Below, one piece after another: positions 12,490-43,841 of a DNA stretch of 44,017 nt; position 1 is the stretch's first letter; the number at the start of each line of letters is the position of its first letter. The notes below the pieces were generated by a model. It was not told where the DNA came from. It saw only the letters and a program-made list of their open reading frames with translations, and ran no database searches. Made by a program: the position numbers and the translations under genes. Location of the stretch: contig JAVJWO010000031.1 of NCBI GenBank assembly GCA_040222015.1, positions 1 to 44,017 of the forward strand, read 5' to 3'. The DNA is from Coleofasciculus chthonoplastes F2-STO-03 (GTDB lineage: Bacteria > Cyanobacteriota > Cyanobacteriia > Cyanobacteriales > Coleofasciculaceae).

Positions 12490-14019
12490 TTAAACCTGGC
12501 GTTTCGTCCGTTGACGGTGTGCCGCTTGGCGTAGTTTAAGGCGGTAAGGATCAGCATCTTTGCGCCAGATGACACGATGCCCTTGGAGTTGGGCGCAATG
12601 GTCGATTAGGCATTGTTGCCAGCCTTGGCGCGTACCGATAGTTTGGGTATTATCCAGCAGTCCCCAGTCTTCTTCCTGACGAGTGAGTTTGGCAAATTTT
12701 TCGTACAGGGGATAATCTGGAGTGACGAAGGTTTCTTTACGGTGTAAGACGGGGGGATTTCTGGAGGCATCGTAATGGCGATAGGTAACCTGTAAATCCT
12801 GCAAGTCAATGTTCATGCTTGTGTGTAGTTCTGGATGGGGTTCAGTGTCGAAATTGGGATAGAACAGGTAGGATATTTTGGGTTGATTAATATGAAACTT
12901 GACTAAGGTTGCCCCCTCTAGGCGACCAACAGTCCGGCTGGCGCACCCTTCGTAGAGTCGGAGTGGGGCTTCGAGGGCTTCGAGGGCACAAACGTGGACG
13001 TAGAGGGCGCTGGGGAGAAGTTTACCCACTGGAGAGCGCTTGCAGCAATTGGCAATTAAGCCGGGATTGCCCACACTCAAGAGGATTAAATCAGCCGCAG
13101 CACAGGCTTGTTGATAGTTACCAAAGAAGGCTCTAATATCATTTTGGACTAAGGGATGTAACTGACCGAACTTGGGACGACCATTGAATTTAGCTAGGGC
13201 GAGATAGACGAGGAAATCATGGCGACGTTTATCTGCGATCGCATCCCATTCATTTTGCTCAGTCACTTGTAAAATAACCTTAAAGGCACGGCGTAGGGTG
13301 CCGAATTCTTCCAGGATTTCTTCGGTATTGGCGAGTTCTAGGGGACTGGGAAGGCGTCCCCGTTCGGTGATAAATGCCATCAGAGGGGCAAGCATATCTT
13401 TATAGCTCTCGAACCGCTTCACGCTAACGCGGATTCTGGGGGTAATGGTACGAGAACGGAAGCGGGATGCCCGGAAGCTTTCGGCTTGAGTGGAATCTCG
13501 GAAGATAAAATAGATGCCTAAGTCAACGGGAATAGCATCAACCCCTAATACTTGGTCAATGTAGGCTTTGAGTTCTTCTTGTTCGTAGTATTTCTGAAAC
13601 GTATTCCGGCGGGTGACAATACCATCACCATAAGCAATTTGTCCAGAACTACGGTCATCAATTAAAACTTGGGCAGAGACAATCAGCACCTTTTGGGTGA
13701 GTTCCCAGGCTTTTAGTAAGGCTTGGCGACGTTCTCCTGGCTTTTCAATCACGTTGATTACGTAGCCTAGGTTAACGATATCAGCGGGTACTAGAGAATT
13801 GCCGCCATGGTAGTAGGGGTCCCAACCTGCACAGGTATAACCTTGCTGACGCATACGGTTGATGTCACTACCACGACCACAGCCGTAGTCAAAAAAGGAA
13901 GTATCTTTAGTCAGAATGGCACTTTCTAGGGCTAGTCGCACTGGTTTAGACAAGTTAGTGCGGACTATTGCAGCCCTGTGACGCTCGATTTCAGTACCGT
14001 CTGGGATAGGAGCAACCAT
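12490..14019 (-). CDS. DNA phosphorothioation-associated putative methyltransferase
   Basis: RHRAAIVR..LSKPV, FDYGCGRG, GWDPYY, VNLGYVINVIE, TFQKYY, VLHRKETF. Confidence 0.85.
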   Translation of the reverse strand: MVAPIPDGTEIERHRAAIVRTNLSKPVRLALESAILTKDTSFFDYGCGRGSDINRMRQQGYTCAGWDPYYHGGNSLVPADIVNLGYVINVIEKPGERRQALLKAWELTQKVLIVSAQVLIDDRSSGQIAYGDGIVTRRNTFQKYYEQEELKAYIDQVLGVDAIPVDLGIYFIFRDSTQAESFRASRFRSRTITPRIRVSVKRFESYKDMLAPLMAFITERGRLPSPLELANTEEILEEFGTLRRAFKVILQVTEQNEWDAIADKRRHDFLVYLALAKFNGRPKFGQLHPLVQNDIRAFFGNYQQACAAADLILLSVGNPGLIANCCKRSPVGKLLPSALYVHVCALEALEAPLRLYEGCASRTVGRLEGATLVKFHINQPKISYLFYPNFDTEPHPELHTSMNIDLQDLQVTYRHYDASRNPPVLHRKETFVTPDYPLYEKFAKLTRQEEDWGLLDNTQTIGTRQGWQQCLIDHCAQLQGHRVIWRKDADPYRLKLRQAAHRQRTKRQV

Positions 14020-14231: not shown

Positions 14232-14294
14232 TGACAAATGACAAATGACAAATGACAAATGACAAATGACAAATGACGAATGACAAATGACCAA
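14232..14294. repeat. STRR (TGACAAA)x9 abutting the helicase start codon
   Basis: Nine heptamers (two variant); the last A plus TG forms the ATG at 14294. Confidence 0.9.
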
Positions 14295-17200
14295 TGCCAC
14301 GCATCTTTGACAACATAGAACAATCGCTGTTACCGACATTACGGGATACCCTGAGAATTTCCCAACGGGCTGATTTTTGTGTCGGCTATTTTAATCTGAG
14401 AGGATGGCGTAAAATTGATGATACGATTGAACAGTTTGGTGGTGGTGAAGGTGCTTGTTGTCGGCTGTTAATTGGGATGCAGCGCTTACCGAAAGATGAT
14501 GTGCATTCGGCGTTGGCGTTGGGGTATGAAGATAGAGGGATTGATAATAGCACGATTATTATTTACAAGAAACAAATTGCCCAAGACTTTTGTGAACAAT
14601 TAACCTGGGGCGCACCCACGAATGAGGATGAAGCAGGTTTGCGCCGATTGAGTCAGCAACTTAAAACTCAGAAACTGAGTGTTAAATTATTTCTGAGATA
14701 TCCGCTTCATGCCAAACTCTATTTGATTCATCGCCAGGATATCAATAATCCCACGATTGGCTTTTTGGGTAGCAGTAATCTGACATTATCGGGGCTACAA
14801 TACCAGGGCGAGTTAAATGTTGATATTTTAGACCATGATGCTTGTCAGAAGCTACAACTCTGGTTCAATCAGCGCTGGAATGACCGCTGGTGTATTGATA
14901 TTTCCCAGGATTTGGCGGAAATTATTGATCAGAGTTGGGCAAGGGATAAACTGATTCCGCCTTACTATATTTATTTGAAAATTGCCTATCATTTATCTCA
15001 GGAAGCCCGGGCGGGATTATCGGAATATCAGATTCCGCGTGAGTTTCGCCATCAGTTATTTGACTTTCAAAAAGCTGCTGTACAAATTGCTGCCCGTCAT
15101 TTAAATCGTCGCGGTGGCGTATTGGTGGGAGATGTTGTCGGGTTGGGAAAAACGTTAATTGCTTCGGCGTTAGCGAAGATTTTGGAGGAGGATTTTTTCC
15201 TGGAAACTCTGATTATCTGTCCCAAAAACTTGGTGACAATGTGGCAGGACTATGTTCACCGCTACGGGTTACGGGCAAAGGTTTTGTCCTTAAGTCGGGT
15301 ACAGATAGAGTTACCCAATGAACGCCGTTATCGGGTGGTATTAATTGATGAGAGTCATAATTTGCGAAATCGGGAGGGGAAACGTTATCGGGCAATTCAG
15401 GAGTATATGGCGCTGAATGAGAGTCGTTGTATTCTGTTGACGGCGACGCCTTATAATAAAACTTATTTGGATTTATCGAATCAACTGCGTTTATTTGTTC
15501 CTGATGATCAAGATTTAGGGATTCGTCCGGAAAAACTGTTGAGTGAGTTGGGCGGAGAAATCGAATTTAGCCGTAAACATCAAGCCCCCGTGCGTTCATT
15601 GGCGGCGTTTGAAAAGAGTGAGTATCCGGATGATTGGCGAGAATTGATGCGGCTGTATATGGTGCGTCGAACGCGCAGTTTTATTCAGGAAAATTATACG
15701 AAAGATGATGAACGAGGGCGCAAATATCTCACGTTTCCGGATGGGAGACGGGCATATTTTCCCCTGCGCCAACCCCAGACGATTCGGTTTAGTTTGGGTG
15801 CGGGGAATGATCCTTATGCGGCGCTTTATTCAGAGGAGATGGTTAATCTGTTGAATTCCTTAAATTTGCCTCGATATGGGTTGGGGAATTACGCGATATC
15901 AGAAAAGTCAGCCAAGGAGAAATCCTTAACCGCAGCGGAAGCGGTACAGCTTAAAGGGTTATCTCGCGCCGGGAAACGATTGATGGGATTTTGTCGGACT
16001 AACTTATTTAAACGCTTAGAAAGTGGTGGGGTAGCATTCCTGCAATCCATTGACCGCCATATCTTACGCAATTATATTTTCTTGCACGCGATCGCACAAG
16101 GCTTACCGTTACCCATTGGTTCCCAAGCGGCGGCGCTGCTGGATACTCGCACCAATGATGAGGATATGGATTCGGTGGCGGGAATGCTGTTAGATTCTGA
16201 TGATGAGGAAGAAGTCACCGGGGAAGAGTTATTATCTCAAACCGAGATAGACTATCGCCAACGGGCGGCGCTAATTTATCATGACTATGCGACTCGGTAT
16301 CAGGGGCGGTTTAAGTGGTTGCGTTCTCAGTTATTTAAGGCGTCGCTGAAAAAAGATTTACTGGCTGATGCGAAAGCCTTAATCAGTCTGCTGAATCAAT
16401 GTGGGGAATGGGATGCAAATCAAGATACTAAATTGGCGGCGTTAGTTCAGCTACTCACTCAGGTTCATCCCCAAGAAAAGGTATTGATTTTTAGTCAGTT
16501 TGCGGATACGGTACATTATCTGACTAACCAACTCCAGCAACGGGGAATTAATCAGGTTGCAGGCGTAACTGGGAATTCTATTAACCCGGCTGAAATCGCG
16601 TGGCGTTTTAGTCCTCTGAGTAACGATAAGTCTGTCTCCTCTGAAGAGGAATTACGGGTTTTAATTGCCACCGATGTCCTGAGTGAAGGGTTAAATTTAC
16701 AAGACTGTGCCATTATTGTCAATTATGACTTACCTTGGGCAATTATTCGCCTAATTCAACGGGCGGGACGAGTAGACAGAATTGGTCAAAATGCGGCTAA
16801 GATTCTTTGCTATTCGTTTTTACCCGCAGCGGGAGTGGAACGGATTATTCGACTCCGAGAACGCTTGCGTCAACGATTGCAAGAAAATGCGGAAGTGGTG
16901 GGGACAGATGAGGCGTTTTTTGAAGAGGATGGCAATGAACAGACGCTATTAGATTTGTATCACGAAAAAGCGGGAATTCTGGATGGCGATGAAGATAACG
17001 AAGTAGATTTAACGTCAGAGGCGTATCAAATTTGGCAGAATGCGACTCAGAATAATCCCACGTTGAAAAAGCAGATTGAAACCTTGGCAAATGTGGTCTA
17101 TTCCACCCGCAAGCATCTCCCCACGACTAGGCAACCGGAGGGGGTATTGCTGTATATGAAAACGGGGGAAGGTAATGATGCTTTAGCTTGGATAAATAAG

Positions 17201-17656
17201 CAGGGTAAAAGTGTTACTCAGTCTCAGTTTGAGATTCTGCGGATGGCGCGTTGCGAACCAGAAAATCAGGCAATTAACCGTCATCCTGACCATCACAATT
17301 TAGTGCAAAAGGGGGCGGAACTAATTGCGGAGGAAGAGAAAAGTACGGGGGGTCAATTGGGACGTCCTTCGGGGGCAAGATTTCGCACCTATACACGGCT
17401 GAAACGTTATGTGAAAGAGATGCCTTTGTTAGCCACGCCAGATTTACATAAAGCAATTGACCAAGTTTATCGTTATCCCTTGCGACAGTCAGCGATTGAC
17501 CGCTTGAATCGGTCGTTGAAAAGTGGGATGGATGACCAACAGTTTGCCGAGTTAGTCGTGGCGCTGTATTTAGATGACCGTTTGTGTTTTGTTCAGGAGG
17601 AAGGGAGAACTCAAGACCCGGAAATTATTTGTTCGTTAGGATTATTTCAAGGATAA
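14294..17656 (+). CDS. PLD-family nuclease fused to SF2 (SNF2-like) helicase
   Basis: LHAKLY..GSSNLT..ELN (PLD); GDVVGLGKT, DESH, TATP, VLIFSQF, SEGLNLQ, QRAGRVDRIG (helicase). Confidence 0.92.
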   Translation: MPRIFDNIEQSLLPTLRDTLRISQRADFCVGYFNLRGWRKIDDTIEQFGGGEGACCRLLIGMQRLPKDDVHSALALGYEDRGIDNSTIIIYKKQIAQDFCEQLTWGAPTNEDEAGLRRLSQQLKTQKLSVKLFLRYPLHAKLYLIHRQDINNPTIGFLGSSNLTLSGLQYQGELNVDILDHDACQKLQLWFNQRWNDRWCIDISQDLAEIIDQSWARDKLIPPYYIYLKIAYHLSQEARAGLSEYQIPREFRHQLFDFQKAAVQIAARHLNRRGGVLVGDVVGLGKTLIASALAKILEEDFFLETLIICPKNLVTMWQDYVHRYGLRAKVLSLSRVQIELPNERRYRVVLIDESHNLRNREGKRYRAIQEYMALNESRCILLTATPYNKTYLDLSNQLRLFVPDDQDLGIRPEKLLSELGGEIEFSRKHQAPVRSLAAFEKSEYPDDWRELMRLYMVRRTRSFIQENYTKDDERGRKYLTFPDGRRAYFPLRQPQTIRFSLGAGNDPYAALYSEEMVNLLNSLNLPRYGLGNYAISEKSAKEKSLTAAEAVQLKGLSRAGKRLMGFCRTNLFKRLESGGVAFLQSIDRHILRNYIFLHAIAQGLPLPIGSQAAALLDTRTNDEDMDSVAGMLLDSDDEEEVTGEELLSQTEIDYRQRAALIYHDYATRYQGRFKWLRSQLFKASLKKDLLADAKALISLLNQCGEWDANQDTKLAALVQLLTQVHPQEKVLIFSQFADTVHYLTNQLQQRGINQVAGVTGNSINPAEIAWRFSPLSNDKSVSSEEELRVLIATDVLSEGLNLQDCAIIVNYDLPWAIIRLIQRAGRVDRIGQNAAKILCYSFLPAAGVERIIRLRERLRQRLQENAEVVGTDEAFFEEDGNEQTLLDLYHEKAGILDGDEDNEVDLTSEAYQIWQNATQNNPTLKKQIETLANVVYSTRKHLPTTRQPEGVLLYMKTGEGNDALAWINKQGKSVTQSQFEILRMARCEPENQAINRHPDHHNLVQKGAELIAEEEKSTGGQLGRPSGARFRTYTRLKRYVKEMPLLATPDLHKAIDQVYRYPLRQSAIDRLNRSLKSGMDDQQFAELVVALYLDDRLCFVQEEGRTQDPEIICSLGLFQG

Positions 17657-17667
17657 AATAGGAAATC

Positions 17668-18240
17668 ATGATGACATCACTCACTATTCCAGAAACCCAG
17701 TTAACCCTCGCCGAGTTTTTGGCACAACCGGAAACCAAGCCAGCCAGGGAATATGTCAACGGTCAAATTCACCAAAAGCCCATGCCTCAAGGAGAACATA
17801 GTGTTTTACAATGCCGCTTATCTGGAGCAATCAACCAGGTGGGTATCCCTGATAAGTTAGCTCATGCTTTTACTGAGTTACGCTGTACCTTCGGTGGACG
17901 TTCTATTGTTCCCGATGTATCCGTTTTTACCTGGGAGCGTATTCCACGTAAAGCCAATAACCGGATTGAGAATAAATTTAAAATTGCCCCAGATTGGACA
18001 ATTGAAATTCTCTCTCCTGACCAATCCCCTAGCCGGGTAATTGATAATATTCTGTTCTGTTTAAATCATGGGACAAAGCTGGGGTGGTTTATTGAACCGG
18101 ATGATGAATCGGTTATGGTATTTCAACCGAATCAGTTACCTGTTGTCAAGTATGAGGCAGATAGTTTACCCATTCTGGATAATTTAGGCGATTGGCAGCT
18201 TACGGTGGCAGATGTATTTAGTTGGTTGAATTTAGAGTAA
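17668..18240 (+). CDS. Uma2 family endonuclease-fold protein
   Basis: PARE..QKPMPQGEHS, VPDV, APDWTIEILSP. Confidence 0.92.
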   Translation: MMTSLTIPETQLTLAEFLAQPETKPAREYVNGQIHQKPMPQGEHSVLQCRLSGAINQVGIPDKLAHAFTELRCTFGGRSIVPDVSVFTWERIPRKANNRIENKFKIAPDWTIEILSPDQSPSRVIDNILFCLNHGTKLGWFIEPDDESVMVFQPNQLPVVKYEADSLPILDNLGDWQLTVADVFSWLNLE

Positions 18241-18360
18241 AATTGCGTAGGGGCGCACCGACGTGCGCCCAGATAATATGTAACTTTGAGTTGAATGGTA
18301 CTGAGGTAAGGCTGGTGGGCAGTGCCCACCCTACAGAAGCTATAGAAATGCGGTGATAAT

Positions 18361-19008
18361 ATGGTTCAAACAATTCAAGCTAGAGATGTCACGCTAGAAC
18401 AATTAGAAACTTACTTCCAGCTTCAGCGAGTTGAGGATGAACAGTTCTTCCCAGAATGGCATGGTGATTTACCTGAACTTACCGACTGGCAAAACCAACT
18501 TTTAGAACAAGTTCGTTCGGGCTATTTCAATTTACTCAAACAACCCCCTTTACTAGAAAAACCTATCAACCTCGCCGTTGTCTCCCCGTTATTATTTATC
18601 GGACAATTTTATCTATCGCCTTGGAATTTAAGAGCCGAGAGCAGTGTCCAAATCTCAACTCAAGACGAAGAACGCGGAATTATGGTTAAAGGGAATCTTG
18701 ACACCTTGGTTCTCAAGGACAGACTTTGGGTGATGGTGATTGAATCCAAGCAAGCTCATTTCTCTGTAGAAGCTGGATTAGCGCAAATTCTCGCCTATAT
18801 GCTAGGAAACCCTAATTCAGCGCAACCGAGTTTCGGGATGATTACGACTGGGGGAAGTTTTCTTTTCCTGAAAGTTGTCAAAGATACTACCCCTCTGTAT
18901 GCTATGTCTGATTTGTTTGGAATTGGCAATCGCCAAAATGGTTTGGGTGATGTCCTTAGAATCTTAAATAAACTGATTCATCTATCTATTTCTGCTAATT
19001 TGGAATAG
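18361..19008 (+). CDS. Small PD-(D/E)XK protein resembling the HsdR N-terminal domain
   Basis: GNLDTLVL..VIESK, AQILAYM, GMITTG..FLK; multi-copy cyanobacterial family. Confidence 0.8.
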   Translation: MVQTIQARDVTLEQLETYFQLQRVEDEQFFPEWHGDLPELTDWQNQLLEQVRSGYFNLLKQPPLLEKPINLAVVSPLLFIGQFYLSPWNLRAESSVQISTQDEERGIMVKGNLDTLVLKDRLWVMVIESKQAHFSVEAGLAQILAYMLGNPNSAQPSFGMITTGGSFLFLKVVKDTTPLYAMSDLFGIGNRQNGLGDVLRILNKLIHLSISANLE

Positions 19009-19023
19009 ATTGGTACATCATCC

Positions 19024-19449
19024 GTGTCAACTTAAGGTGAAACCAATACTGGCAATGGTTTAAGCTGTGTCTATCTACTCCTCGACATTTTTCCCCTCAT
19101 CCCCTAACCCCTTCTCCCTCTCTGGGGAGAAGGGGAACTGCCCTCACCCCTCTCCCTGACAGGTGTAGGTTTTTTATTTTAGGGTGGGGACAAGACAAGG
19201 AGGGCAAGGAAGGAAAGTAGACAATGGGGTAAAACCGTACAGAATTAGGTTCGGTAAAGCTAACTATAAAAAGCCGAAACGCCCTATTTTTCGTTCTCAA
19301 TCTTCCTTATCTACTGGTCTACCTGTCTTCCTTGTCTAACCTGAACCCCAATCTTAAAAAACCTACCCTTGTGAGCTCCCCTCTCCCCGGTGTGGGAGAG
19401 GGGCTGGGGGAGAGGGGCTGGGGGAGAGGGGTTAAGCTTAAGTTGACAC
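19024..19449. mobile_element. Nested MITE-like elements
   Basis: Perfect outer IR GTGTCAACTTAAG (19024-19036 / 19437-19449); imperfect inner IR (core GTAGGTTTTTTA) bounding 19159-19372; CCCCTCTCCC..GGGAGAGGGG hairpins. Confidence 0.65.
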
Positions 19450-19513
19450 CAACACCAATGACGGAGCGTGCGCCCCTACGAACCTGTATCCTGAATTTTA
19501 GGAGATACGACTT

Positions 19514-22500
19514 ATGCCCCTCAATTTTAAGCGCACCCGCGATTTACTCTATGATTTCCAGTTTCATGAGTTGTTTATTGAAGAATTAGGCTGGTATCAA
19601 CCCTCCACGAAGAAAGCGGTATCTTTTGAGATTGAGGAGAAAATCTATCAGTATCAACGAATTGCGGAAGCCTCTGGGGTGGTTGTGTTTGAAGTAACCG
19701 GAGACGATGGCAAAATTCCGGAAGCGAAACATCGGGTGGCGATTCATAAAGAACTGACAGAAAAGATTGCGGAAAATTTGTTGATTTTTGTGGATAAAGA
19801 GCGCAGTCGCAGTCTGTGGTATTGGGTGAAGCGGGAGGAGTATAAGCGTTATGTGCGTGACCATTTATATGTGAAGGGTCAACCGGGGGATTTGTTTTTG
19901 AGTAAGTTGGGTGGGTTGGTGATTGATATTTCTCACCTGGAAGATGGTGAACCGTCGGTAATTGAAGTCGCTCAACGGTTACAAAGTGCTTTTGATATTG
20001 AACGGGTGACGAAGAAGTTTTATCATGAGTTTCAGGAACAACATCAGGAGTTCCTTAGGTTTATCCAAGGGATTGATAGTGAAGCAGATTCTCGCTGGTA
20101 TACGTCGGTTATTCTGAATCGCTTAATGTTTGTTTACTTCTTGCAGAAGAAAGGGTTTATTGATAATGGAGATGGCGATTATCTGCACCATAAGGATTAT
20201 CTGCACCATAAGTTAGCGGAGAGTAAACAACGGGGAGAGAACCGCTTTTTTCGAGAGTTTCTCCAGGCGTTATTTTTTGAAGGCTTTGCTAAACCGGAAT
20301 TTGAACGGGAACCGGAGGTGCAAGGGTTAATTGGGCGGGTAAACTATTTAAATGGGGGATTATTTCTTAAGCATCGGATTGAACAAGAGTATCCGCATAT
20401 TGATATCGCGGATGAGGCGTTTGAGCAGATTTTGGATTTGTTTTCTCGCTATTCCTGGAATCTGGATGATACGCCAGGGGGTAAGGATGATGAGATTAAC
20501 CCAGATGTGTTGGGGTATATCTTTGAGAAGTATATTAACCAGAAGGCGTTTGGGGCGTATTATACCCGCCCGGAGATTACCGAGTATTTATGCGATCGCA
20601 CGATTAATAAGCTTATTCTAGATCGGGTGAATGCGACTATTATAGGGGATTCCTCCCCATCTGTCTCCAACCCAGGGGAAGGGTTTACGGATATCAACGA
20701 ACTCCTGATTAAGCTTGACTCCCCGTTGTGCGATCGCTTAATCCAGGATATCCTTCCTAATCTATCACTCCTTGACCCGGCTTGCGGTTCTGGAGCCTTC
20801 CTCGTCGCCGCCATGAAAACCCTGATTTCAGTCTACACGGCGGTTATCGGCACAATCAAGTTAAAGGGCGATCGGCGTTTGAAAGCGTGGTTAAATAAGA
20901 TTGAGGCAAATCATCCCTCATTATCCTATTTTGTCAAAAAGCGGATTATTACCGATAACCTCTATGGCGTAGACATCATGGAGGAGGCGACGGAAATTGC
21001 TAAATTACGGTTATTTTTGGCGCTGGTTTCTTCCGCCCAGGAGGTTGAGGAGTTAGAACCCTTACCGAATATTGATTTTAACATCATGGTGGGGAATTCA
21101 TTAATCGGTTTGATTCGGGTAGATGAGGAAGGATTTGATACGGTTGGCGACTCCAAATATAAACAGGGTAATTTACTACAATCTCTAGCCGCCAGTAGTT
21201 ATCGGCAGATTTTGGACGAAAAGAACCAAAATATAGATTTATACAAAAAACACGCTTTTCAGTCAGAGGATATTGAAGGAACCTCTCAGGATTATCGATT
21301 ACAAGCGCTGCGGAATGAGATTGAGAAGCTAAACCGTGATTCGTACAAGAAGTTAAATCAGTTATTACTGGATGAGTTTAGTAAAAGACTTGGCATCAAG
21401 TACGCGCAAGCACAGTTGAAAGGGAAACCCAAGAAACGTTTACTCACTGTTGAAGATATTGATAAGTTAAAGCCGTTTCACTGGGGCTATCACTTTGACA
21501 AGATTATTGAAGAGAGAGGCGGATTTGATGCGATTATCACTAATCCACCGTGGGAGATATTTAAGCCAAATGCTAAGGAGTTTTTCGCACAATACAGCGC
21601 TATTGTGACTAAAAACAAAATGGATATCAAAAAATTTGACAAAGAAAAGCAGAAATTACTAAAAAATCCCGAAATTGCCCAGGCTTGGTTGGAATACCAA
21701 AGCCAATATCCCTATATGAGTTCATACTATCGCTCATCAGAGCAGTATAAGAATCAAGTGTCAGTTGTTAATGGGAAAAAATCAGGAACAGATATTAACC
21801 TATATAAGCTTTTTTTTAGAACAGTGTTTTAACCTGCTCAAGTCTTGTGGCGAGTGCGGAATTGTTATTCCTAGTGGTATTTATACAGACTTAGGAGCCA
21901 AACAACTTCGAGCTATGCTTTTTCAGCAAACTAAAATTACTGGCTTATTTGGTTTTGAAAATCGCAAGAGTATTTTTGAAGGAGTTGATAGTCGCTTCAA
22001 GTTTGTTGTTTTGACGTTTGATAAGAATGGCATAACTAAAGAATTTCCAGCAAAATTTATGCGTCATAATGTACAGGAACTTTCAAACTTTCCTGATCAT
22101 GATAGTCTCTACATTAATGTTGATATAGTACACAGCCTTTCTCCTGATTCTCTCTCAGTGATGGAGTTTAAGAATGAGACAGACATTCGTATTGCCCAAA
22201 AGATGAGCAAGTTACCCTTACTAGGGGAAAAGATTGAAAACAAGTGGAATCTTAAATTAACGTCAGAGTTTCACATGACGAATGATAGTCATTTATTCAA
22301 TCCGCAATCAACATCAGGAAGATTACCTCTTTACGAAGGGAAAATGATTCATCAGTTTAACCATAACTGGAGTCAGCCTAAATATTGGCTGGATGACAGC
22401 AAAGCTCGCGAACAACTACTTGAATCTCGCTTAAAGAAAATTAAAACATTACTTAAATATACTAAATTTGACAAAAGTAGTATCAAAGCAGAATCGATTT

Positions 22501-23633
22501 TGCTTGATTATGAGTCTTATCGTCTTGGCTTTCGAGATGTCGCCAGAAATACAGACGAACGCACAATGATTGCGACCATTTTACATCCCAAATTGTTTTG
22601 TCCTCACACAATGAGTTTGGAAAGGGTTTATGAAGATAAAGTATCTGGAAATAGCCTTGAGTCAAATGTAACTGTAATGACTTCAGTATCTAGGCTTTTT
22701 CTCTGTGCTGTTCTCAACAGTTTGGTTATAGACTATGTGATTCGTCAAAAGGTAACAGCCCATGTATCTTTCTTCTTTGTCTATAATTTACCAGTCCCCC
22801 GTCTCACAGAAGGCGAACCCTACTTTAACGAAATCGTCGAACGCGCCGCCAAACTCATCTGCACCACTCCAGAATTCGATGATTTAGCCCAAGAAGTCGA
22901 ACTCGGTTCCCATAAAAACGGCGTCACCGACGAAACCGAACGCGCCAAACTTCGCGCTGAACTTGATGGCATGATTGCCCACCTCTATAACTTAACCGAA
23001 GCCGAATTTAAACACATTCTCAGCACCTTTCCCATCGTCCCCGAAGAAACCAAACAAGCCGCCCTAGACGCCTACAAAACCCTTACCCCCCTAACCAGTG
23101 ACGCAGACATTATTGACCTCATCAACCAAGGCGAAAGCACCGAATTAGAATTCAAATCATCCTCCCGTTGGGATATGCGGGAAAATAATAAAAATAAGGC
23201 GATGGAACAGGTTATCCTAAAAACCGTTGCTGCTTTCTTAAACACCCATCACGGTGGAACATTATTAATCGGCGTCAACGATGAAGGCAAAGTCATTGGC
23301 TTAAACCACGACTACCAAACCATCCAAAAGAAAAACCGCGACGGCTATGAACTCTTTTTAACCAACGACTTACTGCTAAAAGAACTCGGTAAAGACATCG
23401 CCCCCTACATTCATATCACCTTCCACGAAATCGAGGGTAAAGACGTTTGTCGGATTAGCCTTGACCCCTCCCCGCGTCCCGTCTATGTTAAACTCAAAGA
23501 CGCTAAAAGCGGTCAAATCAAAGAATGTCTGTTTATCCGCACGGGCAATTTAACTAGCCAACTCGATACGCCTAGTGAGATTCTCAATTATTGCCAAAAT
23601 CGCTGGAATTCTAGCAGTAGAAACATCGATTAG
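19514..23633 (+). pseudogene. Eco57I/type IIG-like N6-adenine methyltransferase + TRD + C-terminal AlbA_2 (Schlafen-like) domain, split by a +1 frameshift at T8 (21810-21817)
   Basis: YLNGGLF, GAYYT, LDPACGSGAFL and NPPW in ORF 19514-21832. PLYEGKMI, RAELD and GESTELEFK..AAFLNT..GGTLLIGVND in ORF 21765-23633. T7 restores NLYKLFLEQCF and a 1372-aa ORF. Confidence 0.88.
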
Positions 23634-24569: not shown

Positions 24570-24801
24570 GTGAGCTAGGGCGGGTTTTGTTGTTCAGTTA
24601 TTTCACCAATAGCTGACTGTTTGCAGAAGTGAGCTAGGGCGGGTTTTGTTGTTCAGTTATTTCACCAATAGCTGACTGTAGTTCCTAAACCCGCCCCTAC
24701 AATTGTGACTAAACCCGCCCCTACAATTGTGACTAAACCCGCCCCTACAATTGTGACTAAACCCGCCCCTACAATTGTGACTAAACCCACCCCTACAATT
24801 G
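24570..24801. repeat. Amplified REP: 51-bp duplication (24570, 24629) plus five tandem 24-bp units CTAAACCCGCCCCTACAATTGTGA (24685-24801)
   Basis: Seen directly; no spacers; last unit degenerate. Confidence 0.9.
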
Positions 24802-24842
24802 ACTTATGATTTATAAATTTAACATTTATCCTTTGCTTTTGT

Positions 24843-27153: not shown

Positions 27154-27216
27154 TGTCATTTGTCATTTGTCATTTGTCATTTGTCATTTGTCATTTGTCA
27201 TTTGTCATGCGTCATT
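27154..27216. repeat. STRR (TGTCATT)n
   Basis: Seven perfect and two variant heptamers. Confidence 0.9.
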
Positions 27217-29075: not shown

Positions 29076-31292
29076 ATGACTAGAAATCGAAAAATGCCCG
29101 ATCATTGGTATGCTACCCGGTCTTCCCAACCCCGTTGGAGCCAGGATTGGCAACACCAGAGGAATGCTGTTGATCCTCTTCGGGTCGGACATTCAACCTC
29201 TCATCGTCAAACCACTCCCCAACCAGTGACGACGAAGCCAGCCCCACCCTCTCCTCAACATCCCCAAGAACCAAGACGACGCTTTACTTTCGGCTGGACA
29301 TTTTGGGTAACAATGACGATTCTGGTTTCGGGTGGGATAGGATTTTCCTCCGTTGCTCTTTTGCTGAAGCTACCAGCAGTGCCAAATTGTCCCTCAATTT
29401 TTTGGCCCACGGCTTCGGCATCGGTACGTATCTATTGTGGCCAGCTTGCGGCAAATAAACGCACCACCAAGGATTTGTTAGAAGCGATCGCACTCATTGA
29501 TGCTTTACCCAAAGACCACCCCTTACGCCCAGAAATTAACCGCCATATCGAAGAGTGGTCAGTAGAGATTTTAGCGATTGGCGAAGAAAAGTTTCAAGCC
29601 GGTCAGCTAGAGGAAGCGATTGAGATTGCTAACCGGATTCCCAGAGATGTTCCGGCGTTTACCCTAGTCAAAGAACAAATTAAGGAATGGGAAACGCTGT
29701 GGGAAAAGGCTTCAGGGATTTATGAACAAGCCGAGGAACACCTGAGACAGTCCAATTGGACATTAGCGTTTCGAGAAGCCGTCAAGCTGACAACGATAGA
29801 TAATCAATATTGGGCAGCGGTTAAGTACACCCAACTCGTGGATCTGATTCAAATCGGACGAGACGATAGTCAGAAGTTGGATCAAGCCTATCGGCTGAGT
29901 AAAAGTGGTCGAGTCGATGATATTTTAAAGGCGATTGAAGCTGCCGAGAAAATCACGCCCAAGAGTTTTGCCTACAAAGAAGCTCAAGATTTAATTGCTG
30001 AGAGTGGGAATAAATTACTCAAACTAGCCACAAGTCGCTTAGAACAACGGAACTGGCAAGGGGTGTTAGAGATTGCCAATAAGTTACCCGCTAGCGTGAA
30101 ATTACCAGACGTTAAGGCAGATTTAATTGACTTAGCCAATGCCATATCCACGGCTGAATCGGGAAGCAGTGGGGATTTGGAAATCGCGATCGCCTCAGTT
30201 CAGAAATTGGGTACTGATCGTCCTCTATATGATGAAGGTCAAGAATTAATTGCTCGATGGCAACGGGAACTGGAGGATGTGGCTCGACTGGAACGGGCGC
30301 GGACGTTTGCCAGTTCTGGGCTAGTCAACGATTTACAAACCGCGATCGCAGAAGCTCAACTGATTCCCAGCCCTAATCCCCGCTACCAAGAAGCGAGGGC
30401 TGAGATTAGCCAATGGACTCGTCAAATCCAAACCCTAGAAGATCAGCCTTATCTCGATCGCGCCACCCAACTTGCCAGCTTTGGCGGAGTCCAATCGTTA
30501 CAAGAAGCCATCAAAGAAGCCCGTCAGATTGCCCCCAATCGCGCTCTTTACTCAGAAGCACAAAGTAATATCAAGGACTGGACGCGCACGGTTCAACGCC
30601 TAGAAGACCAACCCTATCTTGACCGCGCTACCCAACTGGCTAACTTGGGCAGGGCAGAATCGTTAAAACAAGCCATCAAAGAAGCCCGTCAGATTGCCCC
30701 CAATCGCGCTCTTTATCCAGAAGCACAGAGTAAGATCAAAGACTGGACGCGCACGGTTCAACGCCTAGAAGACCAACCCTATCTCGACCAAGCTCGTACC
30801 CTCGCCAATTCCGGCAATCTTTCGGCTGCGATCGCGGCGGCTGAACAAATTAAATCGGGACGGGTACTCTATGGGGAAGCACAAAACCTGATTAAGGGCT
30901 GGAAGACAGAAGTTTTGGGACAACAGCGCTTGCAACAAGCCTACCAATCTGGCACTCTTGGTACTCCCAACGCCATTGTGGAGGCAATTCGTTTAGCTAG
31001 ACAAGTTCCTAGTTCTGCCAAGGTTAGAGGCGATGCTGTCTCGGCGGTTAATCGCTGGAGTTATCAACTGTTGGCATTGGCTCAAGATCGAGCGGCTCTT
31101 AGCTTAACTCAAGCGATTCAACTGGCGAAAATGATTCCTTCGGGAACCGAAGCCTATAATGCGGCTCAAGCGTCAATTCAAGAATGGCAAAGGATTTTAG
31201 AACCGCCTCCTCCCCTTGTCGTGGTTCCTCCGGGTAACGATGCTCAACCTTCACTAGAACCACCCGAACATGAATTGCCTCTGGATAATTAA
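29076..31292 (+). CDS. Single-TM helical-repeat protein (conserved cyanobacterial hypothetical)
   Basis: TM segment, PNCPSIFWPTASAS.R.YC motif, many A..I..W repeats, 55-aa tandem unit. Confidence 0.85.
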   Translation: MTRNRKMPDHWYATRSSQPRWSQDWQHQRNAVDPLRVGHSTSHRQTTPQPVTTKPAPPSPQHPQEPRRRFTFGWTFWVTMTILVSGGIGFSSVALLLKLPAVPNCPSIFWPTASASVRIYCGQLAANKRTTKDLLEAIALIDALPKDHPLRPEINRHIEEWSVEILAIGEEKFQAGQLEEAIEIANRIPRDVPAFTLVKEQIKEWETLWEKASGIYEQAEEHLRQSNWTLAFREAVKLTTIDNQYWAAVKYTQLVDLIQIGRDDSQKLDQAYRLSKSGRVDDILKAIEAAEKITPKSFAYKEAQDLIAESGNKLLKLATSRLEQRNWQGVLEIANKLPASVKLPDVKADLIDLANAISTAESGSSGDLEIAIASVQKLGTDRPLYDEGQELIARWQRELEDVARLERARTFASSGLVNDLQTAIAEAQLIPSPNPRYQEARAEISQWTRQIQTLEDQPYLDRATQLASFGGVQSLQEAIKEARQIAPNRALYSEAQSNIKDWTRTVQRLEDQPYLDRATQLANLGRAESLKQAIKEARQIAPNRALYPEAQSKIKDWTRTVQRLEDQPYLDQARTLANSGNLSAAIAAAEQIKSGRVLYGEAQNLIKGWKTEVLGQQRLQQAYQSGTLGTPNAIVEAIRLARQVPSSAKVRGDAVSAVNRWSYQLLALAQDRAALSLTQAIQLAKMIPSGTEAYNAAQASIQEWQRILEPPPPLVVVPPGNDAQPSLEPPEHELPLDN

Positions 31293-40608: not shown

Positions 40609-40860
40609 GTCAACTACCGCACACCAACCCTTAGGGTATGGTGTGGGCTTGAATAAAGCCTGTTGACCAGACGGCTAGACTTGACTTCGCTCAGTCTAGC
40701 AGCCGTTAAGACTAAGGGTTAACGTTCGTACCAAGGAATGCGTGCCAGTTCCTTGCTCTACAACTGGGTAATTAAACAGGTTATTCGGAAAAGCCAGTGT
40801 TATCCAGAAAGTACCGACTCTTAACACCGTCGAGGCAAACTTAACCAGTAATGAGAGGTG
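40609..40860 (+). ncRNA. omegaRNA (HEARO-like) scaffold of IscB
   Basis: GTCAAC..GGCTTG..AAGCC.GTTGACCAG, GGAATGCGTGCCAGTTCC, TAAACAG..GCCAGTG and CGAGGCAAAC..ACC immediately upstream of iscB. Confidence 0.85.
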
Positions 40861-40865
40861 CAGTA

Positions 40866-42149
40866 ATGCGCGTTTTCGTTCTAGATAAAAACCTACAACC
40901 TCTTGACCCCTGTCATCCAGCACGGGCAAGAGAGTTACTCTCGCAAGGGAGGGCTAAGGTATTCAAGCGCTATCCGTTCACCATTGTTTTGCCAGACAGA
41001 ACTATTGATAAATCAGTCACGCATCCACACCGAATCAAGATTGACCCTGGCAGCAAGGTTACGGGATTTGCGGTTGTTCAAGAAGAGACAGGACGTGTCA
41101 CAAACGCTCTTGAAGTCTCGCACCGAGGGCAACAGATAAAAGACTTCCTTGAGGCTCGTAGAGCATTAAGAAGAGGGCGACGTAATCGTAAAACCCGTTA
41201 CCGCAAGCCTCGCTTCTTGAATCGGACTCGTAAGCAGGGTTGGTTACCTCCCTCTCTAGAGAGTCGAATTTCCAACATTGAGACTTGGGTAAGACGAATC
41301 AGGAAGCTCTGTCCAGTCACCGCCATTTCTCAAGAATTAGTCCGGTTCGACTTACAGCAGATGCAAAACCCAGAGATTAGCGGGATAGAGTACCAGAGAG
41401 GTGAACTGTTTGGCTTCGAGGTTAAAGAGTATCTCTTGACAAAATGGGGTAGAAAATGCGCTTATTGCGGCGTTGAAAATGTCCCATTCGAGATAGAACA
41501 CATTCTTGCCAAAAGCAATGGTGGTTCAAACCGAGTCAGTAATCTTTGCCTTAGCTGTCATTCTTGTAACCAAGCTAAAGGGAATAAGCCCATTGAGGAA
41601 TTCCTTAAGAAAAAGCCAGAAGTTCTCAAGCGAGTCCTGGCTCAAGCAAAAACACCCCTCAAGGATGCTGCTGTTGTTAACGCTACCCGATGGGAGCTGT
41701 ATCGGAGGCTTCAATCGACTGGTTTACCTGTAGAGGTTGGCTCTGGGGGGCGAACAAAGTTTAACCGTAAGACCACAGGGATTGAGAAACATCATTGGAC
41801 TGATGCAGCTTGCGTCGGCGCTTCAACTCCTGAAAAGCTTCTGATGAACGGAATCAAACCACTAAACATCAAAGCTAAGGGGCATGGAAGAAGGCAGCGT
41901 TGCGGTACAAACAAATTTGGCTTTCCCATTCGCCATGCGCCAGCTCAGAAGTTCTTCATGGGATTCCAGACTGGGGACTTGGTAAAAGCCGATGTCAAAA
42001 CGGGAAAGTACGCAGGAGTTTACACAGGTCGAATTGCCATTCGATTCAAGCCGAGCTTTAAATTAACAACAGGAAGGAAAAGTTTTGACGTGCATCCGAA
42101 ATATTTGAAGACAATTCACAGAGCTGACGGCTATGAATACACATCCTAA
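40866..42149 (+). CDS. iscB: RNA-guided endonuclease IscB
   Basis: PLDPCHP (PLMP), IDPGSK (RuvC-I), Arg-rich bridge helix, QELVRFD (RuvC-II), CAYC..EHI..NL..CHSCN (HNH), HWTDA (RuvC-III). Confidence 0.96.
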   Translation: MRVFVLDKNLQPLDPCHPARARELLSQGRAKVFKRYPFTIVLPDRTIDKSVTHPHRIKIDPGSKVTGFAVVQEETGRVTNALEVSHRGQQIKDFLEARRALRRGRRNRKTRYRKPRFLNRTRKQGWLPPSLESRISNIETWVRRIRKLCPVTAISQELVRFDLQQMQNPEISGIEYQRGELFGFEVKEYLLTKWGRKCAYCGVENVPFEIEHILAKSNGGSNRVSNLCLSCHSCNQAKGNKPIEEFLKKKPEVLKRVLAQAKTPLKDAAVVNATRWELYRRLQSTGLPVEVGSGGRTKFNRKTTGIEKHHWTDAACVGASTPEKLLMNGIKPLNIKAKGHGRRQRCGTNKFGFPIRHAPAQKFFMGFQTGDLVKADVKTGKYAGVYTGRIAIRFKPSFKLTTGRKSFDVHPKYLKTIHRADGYEYTS

Positions 42150-42422
42150 AAACAAGGATTCGCTGTCGCTCAATTTGCTATCTTGCGGCAATTCCCCAGA
42201 CGCTAAACCATTGGGGGTACTCACTGCGCTCGATATAAACCCCTCGGTTATAGCGTCCGCCCCCTTGCCGCATTTAAGGTGGATTGCCTGGACGCTGGAA
42301 GCAGCGGGGTATACTGTTGTTCTTCAAGCATGGGAATTTCCTCCCGGTGGCAACTTTGTATTATATATGCAACGGGCAATGACTGGGACAAAGCAAACGA
42401 TCGCAGTGTTGTCTGAGAATTA

Positions 42423-43841
42423 TGGACTCGCACTCAGCAACTTTTACAGTCCTCTCCCTTACTACCAAGCTGTGCTTTTGATGAATGGGGCTTTGTCTCC
42501 GATAGTCGCGATCGTTCAAAGGAGTCAAATCAGGAAGCTTTTTATCAATGTCAAAATCTCGTGGTAGAAAAATATAAACCTTATCACAAGGCTTTTCCTA
42601 AATATACTATTGCATGCTTGAACTTCTTTAGGCAAGCTGCATGGGTTTTGAACTTTCATCCCTATTTCAGGAACGGAGAAAATACTAGAGTTCAAGAACT
42701 TGCCCAGCAAGCCAATATCGATCTCAATCAACAGGCTCGTCTATCGGTACGAAATTTAGGGGATGCTCGGAAAGCCTTGCCTAAGTTCCAAGCAGAGTTT
42801 AGAAATCTTTTGATCCAATTTGCAGAAGTTGATGAGCTAAATAACTTAGAACGCTTAGAACAAGCCATATTTAACGATGTATGGTGTTCATGGTATTTCT
42901 TTGCCTTTCATCCCAATCGGCGATTCCAAAATGCCACCTGGCAATGTACACAGGAATTCAGTAATCAAGTTGGATAAATCAGAAAAAATATCAAGAGAGA
43001 GCTACGGAGGCTCTGCCAAACTGGTTTACAAGTCAGTATTCTCTCAGAGGACGTACTTTGGGAAGAGGAGCGAACTCTCTGGCTGGTGATTAATGGGGAA
43101 AATGTGTTTGATGTGTATAACACTGTAACTGTAGAAGAAGTAGTTTCTGCTATCCGTCGAGCGATCGCTGCTGCTCAGAACCATGAATTACGGTACTATG
43201 CTATCACATTCACTTGGTCAAATATTGTCATTGTGCCGTTGGTAAAGGGTAAATCTTTGGATGGAACAGCTCGGCGTTTTTCCTCAATTCTCTTCTCAGT
43301 AGACAGGGGTGAGGATACTTTTGGGCAATGTAATTTTGTGCCAGTTGCTATTCCCTCAAACGCTTTCTCTCAATTGGAACTCTCAACTTGGACATATCCT
43401 CGTTTGCTAGTTGGACAAAAACTCACAGGATTGCTGTTTCACTTGTCATTATTGGTGTCACACAGAAGAGAGTTTGAAAAACTGCCAGAGCTAGACGAGC
43501 AGGGACACGAGTTACTTCAGCAGTATATTCAACGGCTCACAACTCCGATGGGCGAGATATTCCAAGCTGTGTTAGACACAGAGACAGAAATGCTTAACTA
43601 TTTCAAGCAGCTTTCGCCTTCAGAGCAAGAAAATCGTCCCCATTTAACTACTGTAGTTCAGGGACTTGCGGAACTACAAGAACAAATCCTGCCAACTGCC
43701 GATTGTTCTAGAGACGGAAGAATTCAGTTAACCATGAACCTGCCAGAAGTTGCTGAGTGGGCTAACCGTTTAGAATCTATTCAACAATCCGTCTTTTCTA
43801 TGTATTTGTTTTGGGTGTCGGATGTGCTAGAGGAAGTGTAA
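42423..43841 (+). pseudogene. C-terminal remnant of a large unknown protein with one internal TAA
   Basis: ORFs 42561-42977 and 43086-43841 share a frame separated only by TAA at 42975-42977; the frame is open back to 42417. Confidence 0.7.

Follow-up and report, generated by a model that had tools for sequence, protein, structure and literature searches.

A PLD-SNF2 helicase paired with an adenine methyltransferase that can carry a Schlafen domain: a candidate two-protein restriction-modification system in Coleofasciculus chthonoplastes

We analysed a pair of genes on a 44,017-nucleotide stretch of DNA from Coleofasciculus chthonoplastes F2-STO-03 (contig JAVJWO010000031.1 of assembly GCA_040222015.1). 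This stretch, called the window in what follows, is the whole of contig C31. Both genes lie on its + strand. A gene coding for a PLD nuclease fused to an SNF2-like helicase comes first and is followed, 1.86 kb further on, by a gene coding for an adenine methyltransferase, with a Schlafen/AlbA_2 domain at the end of the coding region. An initial annotation had proposed that the two genes form a restriction-like defence system. The coordinates of the features are collected in Table 1.

Table 1. Features of the gene pair and of the region between its two members (aa, amino acids).
Feature	Position	Strand	Basis
PLD nuclease-SNF2 helicase fusion, 1120 aa, core gene 1	14294..17656	+	Pfam PLDc_2, SNF2-rel_dom, Helicase_C
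Uma2 putative endonuclease, inserted passenger, not core	17668..18240	+	Pfam Uma2
HsdR_N-like small protein, inserted passenger, not core	18361..19008	+	Pfam HSDR_N matches under cut-off
Nested inverted and G-rich repeats between passengers and methyltransferase	19024..19449	.	Missing in alignments to L001-L003
Adenine methyltransferase 5' part, 772 aa, core gene 2	19514..21832	+	Pfam Eco57I, MmeI_Mtase; motifs I and IV
Same 5' part: N-terminal alpha/beta domain without conserved PD-(D/E)XK, then MmeI/PglX-like helical domain	19514..21832	+	Fold search, column conservation
Methyltransferase 3' part, 622 aa, with the last portion of the catalytic domain, the variable target-recognition region and the Schlafen tail	21765..23633	+	
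Run of 8 T shifting the methyltransferase frame	21810..21817	+	7 T in the close relative L002, where the gene is open throughout (1332 aa)
Schlafen/AlbA_2 domain	23133..23561	+	Intact Ex4ExK, ESTELEFK at 23133-23156

The first gene was found to encode the fusion of nuclease and motor that had been proposed. Pfam placed the PLDc_2 domain at aa 59-195, and the SNF2 and Helicase_C matches are accompanied by the motifs HAK (at aa 139), GDVVGLGKT (at 279) and DESH (at 352). The PLD residues H139, K141, N162 and E173, whose H-K-N-E pattern we take to be the catalytic set of BfiI-like nucleases, are invariant in 56/56 aligned helicase homologues. The same holds for the ATPase residues K286, D352, E353 and H355, and 58 of the 62 full-length metagenome helicases hold all motifs. 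A structure model of the helicase, with a predicted local distance difference test value (pLDDT) of 77.7, resembles Swi2/Snf2 ATPases, including RapA. A ResIII match is limited to aa 342-387, and the Pfam search gave no recognisable target-recognition domain in this protein. Three Coleofasciculus records contain the helicase at 95-96% identity.

The second gene carries the motifs DPACGSG at aa 421 and NPPW at aa 677 of its 772-aa open reading frame (ORF). It is co-oriented with the helicase gene and downstream of it, as first described, but the two are not adjacent: the Uma2 and HsdR_N-like genes, which the initial annotation left out, and inverted repeats totalling ~450 bp stand between them. 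In the intact relative P0001, methyltransferase and target recognition are contained in one chain. Compared with L002, one of the related loci aligned with the window (L001-L003), the recognition region is 53% identical with a synonymous divergence (dS) of 1.35, as against 88-97% identity and a dS of 0.19-0.28 in the flanks. These values indicate that the target-recognition region is swapped between near-identical strains. Such swapping is typical of restriction systems changing their specificity. An in-frame 18-nt duplication is also present inside the methyltransferase gene (20177-20212); it is absent from L002 and L003.

The N-terminus of the methyltransferase was examined for a nuclease. 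Within residues 1-165, no (D/E)xK pair is conserved in at least half of 110 homologues, in agreement with the initial annotation, which had noted no clear PD-(D/E)XK motif there. The N-terminal 370 residues model at pLDDT 88.5. In this model, the part from residue 162 to 344 resembles two known structures, the helical domain of MmeI (Z 10.2, root-mean-square deviation (rmsd) 3.0, 132 aligned) and, with Z 7.4 and rmsd 4.0 over 144 aligned residues, the start of PglX. The place expected for a nuclease is occupied by residues 1-140, which gave only a weak fold match (9y1l, Z 4.2, rmsd 4.8, 110 aligned). DrdV aligns weakly over residues 4-337 (Z 5.5, rmsd 12.1, 211 aligned), and an epimerase-fold protein scores Z 6.0. 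A Foldseek search with the N-terminal model returned no match at E 0.001, and a sequence search with P0001 against solved structures returned 0 matches.

As assembled, the window copy is off or mis-assembled. The methyltransferase gene is broken into two ORFs at the T run, and it is intact, with the same Schlafen tail, in L002. The last ~170 aa do form the AlbA_2 domain that had been described; as sequenced, this domain is not joined to the methyltransferase, and the initial annotation did not spell out the frameshift. In alignments to L001-L003, the T-run indel is the sole uncompensated frameshift within the interiors of the compared genes; every other indel preserves the frame, is compensated or falls at the end of a gene. 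Outside the variable region, both methyltransferase halves show ratios of nonsynonymous to synonymous substitution (dN/dS) of 0.11-0.24. Because both halves are thus under purifying selection, the break is either very recent or an assembly error. In a search of sequencing runs for the locus, the best run shared 0.40 of the words and most shared <0.2, so that none came to half.

Linkage of the two genes was surveyed in 401 cyanobacterial genomes, with a threshold of E 1e-60 for the helicase and methyltransferase counts. The helicase was detected in 49/401 genomes and the methyltransferase in 44/401. By a hand tally, in which related genomes are not independent samples, 47 of the 53 helicase loci have a methyltransferase or a remnant of one at most 4.3 kb away, on the same strand and in either order; the remaining loci are at contig edges (4) or were not fetched (2). 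In a metagenome sample representing a related methyltransferase branch (the best 80 of 508 confirmed loci), the helicase gene is directly upstream in 78/80 loci, mostly less than 60 nt away, and the other two loci have less than 520 nt of upstream sequence. The two genes are also adjacent on a Rhodococcus plasmid. Overall, a conserved linkage of helicase and methyltransferase was borne out. The family is a large one, with 583 clusters (at 50% identity) that match the N-terminal part of the methyltransferase at E 1e-30 or better.

Two further arrangements were observed. The window genome contains a second, distant pair (~29% identity), with the methyltransferase at C149:28020-31037 and the helicase at C154:715-4074; the end of C149 and the start of C154 share a 29-nt overlap, and this second pair is probably contiguous. 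In G390, a 2-contig assembly, the halves of the methyltransferase (L091, L092) are 4.4 Mb apart while the helicase is intact. Each half adjoins a 534-aa ORF with the same start, an apparent rearrangement mediated by an insertion sequence (IS).

The two proteins also show signs of having diverged together. Across 25 non-independent pairs, the identity of the helicase C-terminal part tracks that of methyltransferase residues 1-160 (Spearman 0.84), as compared to 0.33 for the distal methyltransferase core and 0.31 for the recognition region. Prediction of a complex between helicase residues 648-1120 and methyltransferase residues 1-345 gave a score of 0.45, against 0.00 for the best of 3 controls. 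The runs gave 0.45, 0.00 and 0.46, with a contact agreement of at least 0% and a partner pLDDT of at least 71. The mark used for this score is reached by 116/157 solved and 2/215 mismatched pairs, and scores of 0.60 or less at the mark comprise just 18 solved pairs and both mismatches. The prediction lends weak support to a model in which the C-terminal part of the helicase binds the N-terminal part of the methyltransferase.

The Schlafen domain was then considered. SLFN_AlbA_2 matches aa 457-599 of the second methyltransferase ORF with 67.8 bits, as compared to a cut-off of 25.3. The domain has the Ex4(E/D)xK motif of tested prokaryotic Schlafens (10.1101/2025.07.24.666596), which is kept in 57/58 close and 12/12 distant fusions. 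Its dN/dS of 0.11-0.15 (0.15 against L002) shows purifying selection. The nuclease, motor and Schlafen motifs are intact, which supports the initial annotation. In contrast, the idea of a built-in second-line effector found no support in that form: the Schlafen domain is an optional passenger, not a built-in part of the system. In the genome sample, it occurs in 6/39 full-length methyltransferase genes, and in the metagenome sample in 2/80 loci. Among 151 distant methyltransferase homologues, 11 of the 84 full-length proteins have it. It is present in 58 of the top 120 methyltransferase homologues, a count biased by the query, and in 9 of 10 hand-picked long representatives (>1270 aa). Naturally intact pairs that bear it are those of Nostoc punctiforme (NPUN_RS35085 and NPUN_RS35080) and of L002.

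The domain is found at two positions, either at the C-terminus or inserted between methyltransferase motifs I and IV. Internal insertions were seen in P0166, P0211, P0268, L142 and L153, and both L142 and L153 are helicase-linked. Its occurrence at two positions implies that the domain was recruited or relocated at least twice. Backbone support in the Schlafen-domain tree is too weak to count origins, and the independence of the positions rests on architecture. No description of a Schlafen insertion within a catalytic domain was met in the accessible parts of the Schlafen literature examined. One protein, P0126 (1513 aa), extends ~200 residues beyond its Schlafen domain, with no Pfam match there. 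The same Schlafen subfamily is also fused, in ~290-aa proteins (the set P0315-P0387), to a response-regulator receiver (PF00072) or to PF19959; these fusions are possible phosphorylation-controlled RNases.

A homologous pair is found on pSYSX of Synechocystis sp. PCC 6803, where the order is helicase (SGL_RS01585), VapBC, slr6050 (M.Ssp6803IV); the two core families and their order are those of the window. Here, slr6050 comes three genes after the helicase gene, whose product shares 56% identity with the window helicase along its entire length. Slr6050 itself is 43% identical to the window methyltransferase over aa 1-364 and 34% over the core, and differs from it by another target-recognition half and by having no Schlafen domain. 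The accessible text of PMC6105098 treats slr6050 alone and mentions the helicase 0 times. Directly after slr6050, at L085:16924-20600, are ThiF, E2/UBC and multiubiquitin genes and an ImmA/IrrE peptidase gene, a ubiquitin-like cluster in the same island.

Overall, we favour, on balance, the reading that the intact pair functions as an ATP-driven restriction-modification system of two proteins, with the optional Schlafen tail serving as a backup tRNA nuclease. The core restriction-modification role is likely; given that role, the chances that the Schlafen domain is an active backup are about even. In such a system, the methyltransferase would recognise a short asymmetric site through its swappable region and would methylate one adenine, as its motifs, the swapping and the relation to Slr6050 suggest. 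With no conserved catalytic set found, it is probably not the DNA cutter. Where the DNA is unmethylated, the N-terminal domain of the methyltransferase would recruit the helicase, a step to which linkage, intact motifs and, weakly, the complex prediction point. The helicase would then dimerise, so that a single PLD active site is formed, and cleavage would follow an ATP-driven communication between sites. This step is modelled on what was proposed for MtsD of MANTIS, in whose structure a single PLD domain requires a dimer (10.64898/2026.09.23.753747). As long as the enzyme is dispersed, the Schlafen domain would stay silent; when copies cluster or a phage inhibitor jams the enzyme, the domain would fire and thereby arrest translation. 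Its conserved motif and selection argue for an active domain, and its trigger and substrate are modelled on other prokaryotic Schlafens: activation upon clustering or jamming is suggested because tested Schlafens cut tRNA upon a trigger and a change of oligomer, and single-lobe ones assemble for cutting (PMC13056530, PMC13462974, 10.64898/2026.05.29.728809).

A broader formulation can be put forward only tentatively. The pair may represent an unnamed two-protein class of ATP-driven restriction system, a minimal DISARM/ARMADA/MANTIS core, whose methyltransferase recruited a Schlafen tRNase more than once (as a tail and within the catalytic domain). The Schlafen part would be a tripwire, sprung when a phage blocks or clusters the enzyme, and the enzyme would be its own guard.

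Several observations weigh against the favoured reading. The window's own methyltransferase gene is frameshifted. The Schlafen domain is absent from 33/39 full-length genes and from 78/80 metagenome loci. Some methyltransferase genes have no helicase partner: G137:C14 holds two of them, and partial ones are present in G346 and G264. The co-divergence of the two proteins could stem from physical linkage or shared ancestry alone. Residues 1-140 of the methyltransferase, whose modelled fold has no clear match, may be a divergent nuclease. As to Slr6050, the specificity GA(m6A)GGC is a tentative assignment made by elimination, and expression of the protein was not achieved (PMC6105098). Moreover, an slr6050 mutant did not segregate (PMC6105098), which a strictly methyltransferase-dependent nuclease does not predict. 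This last result is ambiguous, because the two ClaI sites of slr6050 are at codons 386 and 696, so that the N-terminal part would be retained, and because the VapBC pair adjoins.

The alternative that survives best accepts the core pair as described and concerns the Schlafen domain. Rather than a guard, this domain would be an appendage that binds nucleic acid or has a regulatory role, or else an independent effector that rides on a defence gene and has a trigger of its own. We consider it unlikely, though deserving of weight. The domain is missing from most family members, and it has no sensor domain of its own. A tree of 118 proteins shows no fewer than 15 gains or losses of it (shuffled mean 39.8), one truncated remnant is known (P0083), and the response-regulator fusions show the same subfamily in other company. 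A mere appendage is harder to reconcile with the catalytic motif kept in 57/58 and 12/12 fusions and with purifying selection, and the insertion within the catalytic domain couples the Schlafen domain to the conformation of the enzyme.

Improbable, in our view, is that the methyltransferase is a self-sufficient Type IIG cutter, with the helicase either in an accessory role or acting independently as a modification-dependent nuclease like SauUSI. The best PADLOC match of the methyltransferase is REase_MTase_IIG (PDLC03628, E 7.8e-119). This profile is essentially Slr6050 (2661.8 bits over all 1100 positions), and a rule-based tool would therefore probably call a one-gene Type IIG system; however, PMC6105098 reports no nuclease activity for Slr6050. 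The match of residues 162-344 to the MmeI helical domain, the weak alignment of DrdV and the occurrence of copies without a helicase are what a Type IIG enzyme would lead one to expect, whereas the lack of a conserved (D/E)xK among the 110 homologues and the near-obligate helicase linkage are not.

Slightly more doubtful again is that the helicase-nuclease acts alone and that the methyltransferase merely protects the host, as in a Type II system or an addiction module. The unsegregated slr6050 mutant and the occurrence of the pair on plasmids would suit such a module, but G390 (the IS-flanked rearrangement), G368, G146 and the window speak against it, each combining an intact helicase ORF with a broken methyltransferase gene. 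This arrangement fits a nuclease that needs its methyltransferase, as MtsD needs MtsABC, and MANTIS methyltransferase mutants are not toxic (10.64898/2026.09.23.753747; PMC12839542). That no target-recognition domain is recognisable in the helicase argues in the same direction.

Least probable is that the T run serves as a programmed switch, by phase variation or slippage, which controls the system or its Schlafen-bearing half: the break does sit in a homopolymer between halves that are otherwise intact and under purifying selection, and the related Cj0031 phase-varies via a poly-G tract (PMC9881135), but such a switch is disfavoured because only 3/29 homologous sites have 7 T, none has 8 T and most interrupt the run, runs of 8 T or A are common in the window genome (413), and an assembly error or a recent chance slip accounts equally well for the run.

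If the pair works as a restriction-modification system with a Schlafen backup, it would be a restriction type with just two proteins. For a model cyanobacterium, it would account for the puzzling essentiality of slr6050 and for a possible barrier to transformation. It would also be the simplest case for asking how a methyltransferase switches on a Schlafen nuclease, and the natural versions of the enzyme (with no Schlafen domain, with a tail, or with an internal domain) are ready-made controls. Meanwhile, this large family is filed as single-gene Type IIG, which hides the helicase partner.

The genes around and between the pair were also inspected. In the window genome, the Uma2 gene has 15 tblastn matches and the HsdR_N-like gene 9. 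The Uma2 gene is absent at loci where helicase and methyltransferase directly abut, and among the loci compared the HsdR_N-like gene occurs only in the window's copies and in L001-L003. The idea that either gene supplies a missing nuclease was rejected, since the genome holds several copies of each and both are lacking where the helicase and methyltransferase genes adjoin. Divergent from the helicase gene, on the - strand (12490-14019), is a gene for a phosphorothioation-associated putative methyltransferase (TIGR04096, 749 bits). A functional tie to this neighbour was likewise rejected; among the loci compared, the linkage exists only in the window and L003. A scan for promoters and terminators was uninformative (25 against 18.7 ± 4.2 and 14 against 9.6 ± 3.2 expected).

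Elsewhere in the window, heptamer tandem arrays of ~9 copies each are located at 14232-14296 and 27154-27216, the first ending at the helicase start codon. Downstream of the locus, positions 24570-24804 hold two exact 51-nt copies and then about five 24-nt tandem copies. A 738-aa ORF at 29076-31292 (+) has an internal 165-nt repeat and no Pfam match at 1e-5. At 40851-42567 (+), a gene with RRXRR and HNH domains, which we presume to be IscB-like, overlaps a 144-aa TIR_2 gene and is followed by two unannotated ORFs.

The pair can be set beside known systems. In Type III restriction-modification systems, Res has a C-terminal PD-(D/E)XK nuclease and Mod is of the N6_N4 type; the pair differs by its N-terminal PLD nuclease and its Eco57I-like methyltransferase. 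PrrC is a separate ABC-ATPase/HEPN tRNA nuclease guarding the restriction system EcoprrI. The proposed guard logic is alike, whereas at the window locus the Schlafen domain is fused to the methyltransferase instead. With the helicase, the profiles of three named systems stay far below their cut-offs: DrmD (NF038317) gives 141.6 bits against 610, the MtsD/Gao PLD anti-phage profile (NF042964) 159.4 against 1100, and DpdE 101.4 against 500.

Class 1 DISARM and ARMADA resemble the pair in having a SNF2/RapA-like helicase beside a PglX/DrmMI-like adenine methyltransferase (10.1101/2025.09.15.676423). They differ in that neither a YprA-type DrmA nor DrmB is present at the window locus, and in that the PLD domain is fused to the helicase instead of forming a separate DrmC. 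The absence of DrmA/B, noted from the start, was confirmed: no DrmA/B/C match exists within the window, and the DrmA/B/C-like proteins of the window genome match none of the 111 loci compared but their own. Two weak DrmA matches in the 80 metagenome loci are 420-460-aa ORFs, and a partial PADLOC DrmMI match (84 bits over methyltransferase aa 416-681) is far below the IIG profile. The window genome has its own class 1 DISARM-like cluster at C52:91196-107142 (-), in which the methyltransferase (1148 + 308 aa) and the DrmA-like protein (708 + 941 aa) are both split; a second DUF1998 cluster is on C210, and DUF499 genes are on C41 and C134. The several broken defence genes in one assembly may reflect decay or indel errors.

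MANTIS, Gao_RL and the Type-2 BREX-related systems share with the pair an N-terminal PLD/HKD domain fused to a Swi2/Snf2 helicase (10.64898/2026.09.23.753747; PMC12839542). In MANTIS, the PLD-SNF2 effector dimerises to one active site, an adenine methyltransferase gives specificity, and asymmetric sites are hemimethylated; MANTIS also requires the DUF499 AAA+ ATPase MtsA, and MtsB (DUF3780) (10.64898/2026.09.23.753747; PMC12839542). In contrast, the window locus has no adjacent DUF499 gene, and the genes between the pair are Uma2 and HsdR_N-like. In the 5 genomes searched, DUF499 is on other contigs or more than 1 Mb from the pair in 4, and it was not found in G029, a genome holding the pair. 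Scattered DISARM or MANTIS partners were rejected, since those clusters possess their own helicases elsewhere. By analogy, the pair likely works in the manner of MANTIS, the best working model, or of a Type III system, while belonging to neither. Judged from gene content, the pair belongs to no named multi-gene system, neither DISARM nor MANTIS.

Type IIG/IIL enzymes (MmeI, DrdV, Cj0031-like) have the same helical domain, gamma-order methyltransferase and target-recognition region in one chain, and differ from the window methyltransferase, which is without a conserved N-terminal nuclease motif. Table 3 of PMC9881135 lists Cj0031-like genes beside a PLD + SNF gene, a pairing of PLD-SNF with type II restriction-modification that is neither named nor tested in that paper. 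Prokaryotic Schlafens share with the window gene the Ex4(E/D)xK domain fused to a DNA methyltransferase. Direct fusions were catalogued in 2026 as Cluster 3 of PMC13462974, and pSlfn22 (PMC13056530) comprises 8 such fusions of 350-784 aa, none of which is of Eco57I size. Schlafen backups beside BREX have also been described (PMC12839542). In the literature searched, with subscription journals largely outside it, no test of the pair or of any Schlafen-methyltransferase fusion was met. The initial view of an undescribed system stands as regards a full match to a named multi-gene system, of which there is none, and has to yield as regards the catalogued fusions, the listed pairing and the Type IIG label in PADLOC. 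Overall, the pairing has been listed in passing and the fusions catalogued, and the pair is an unnamed and very common one with a recurrent, optional Schlafen domain.

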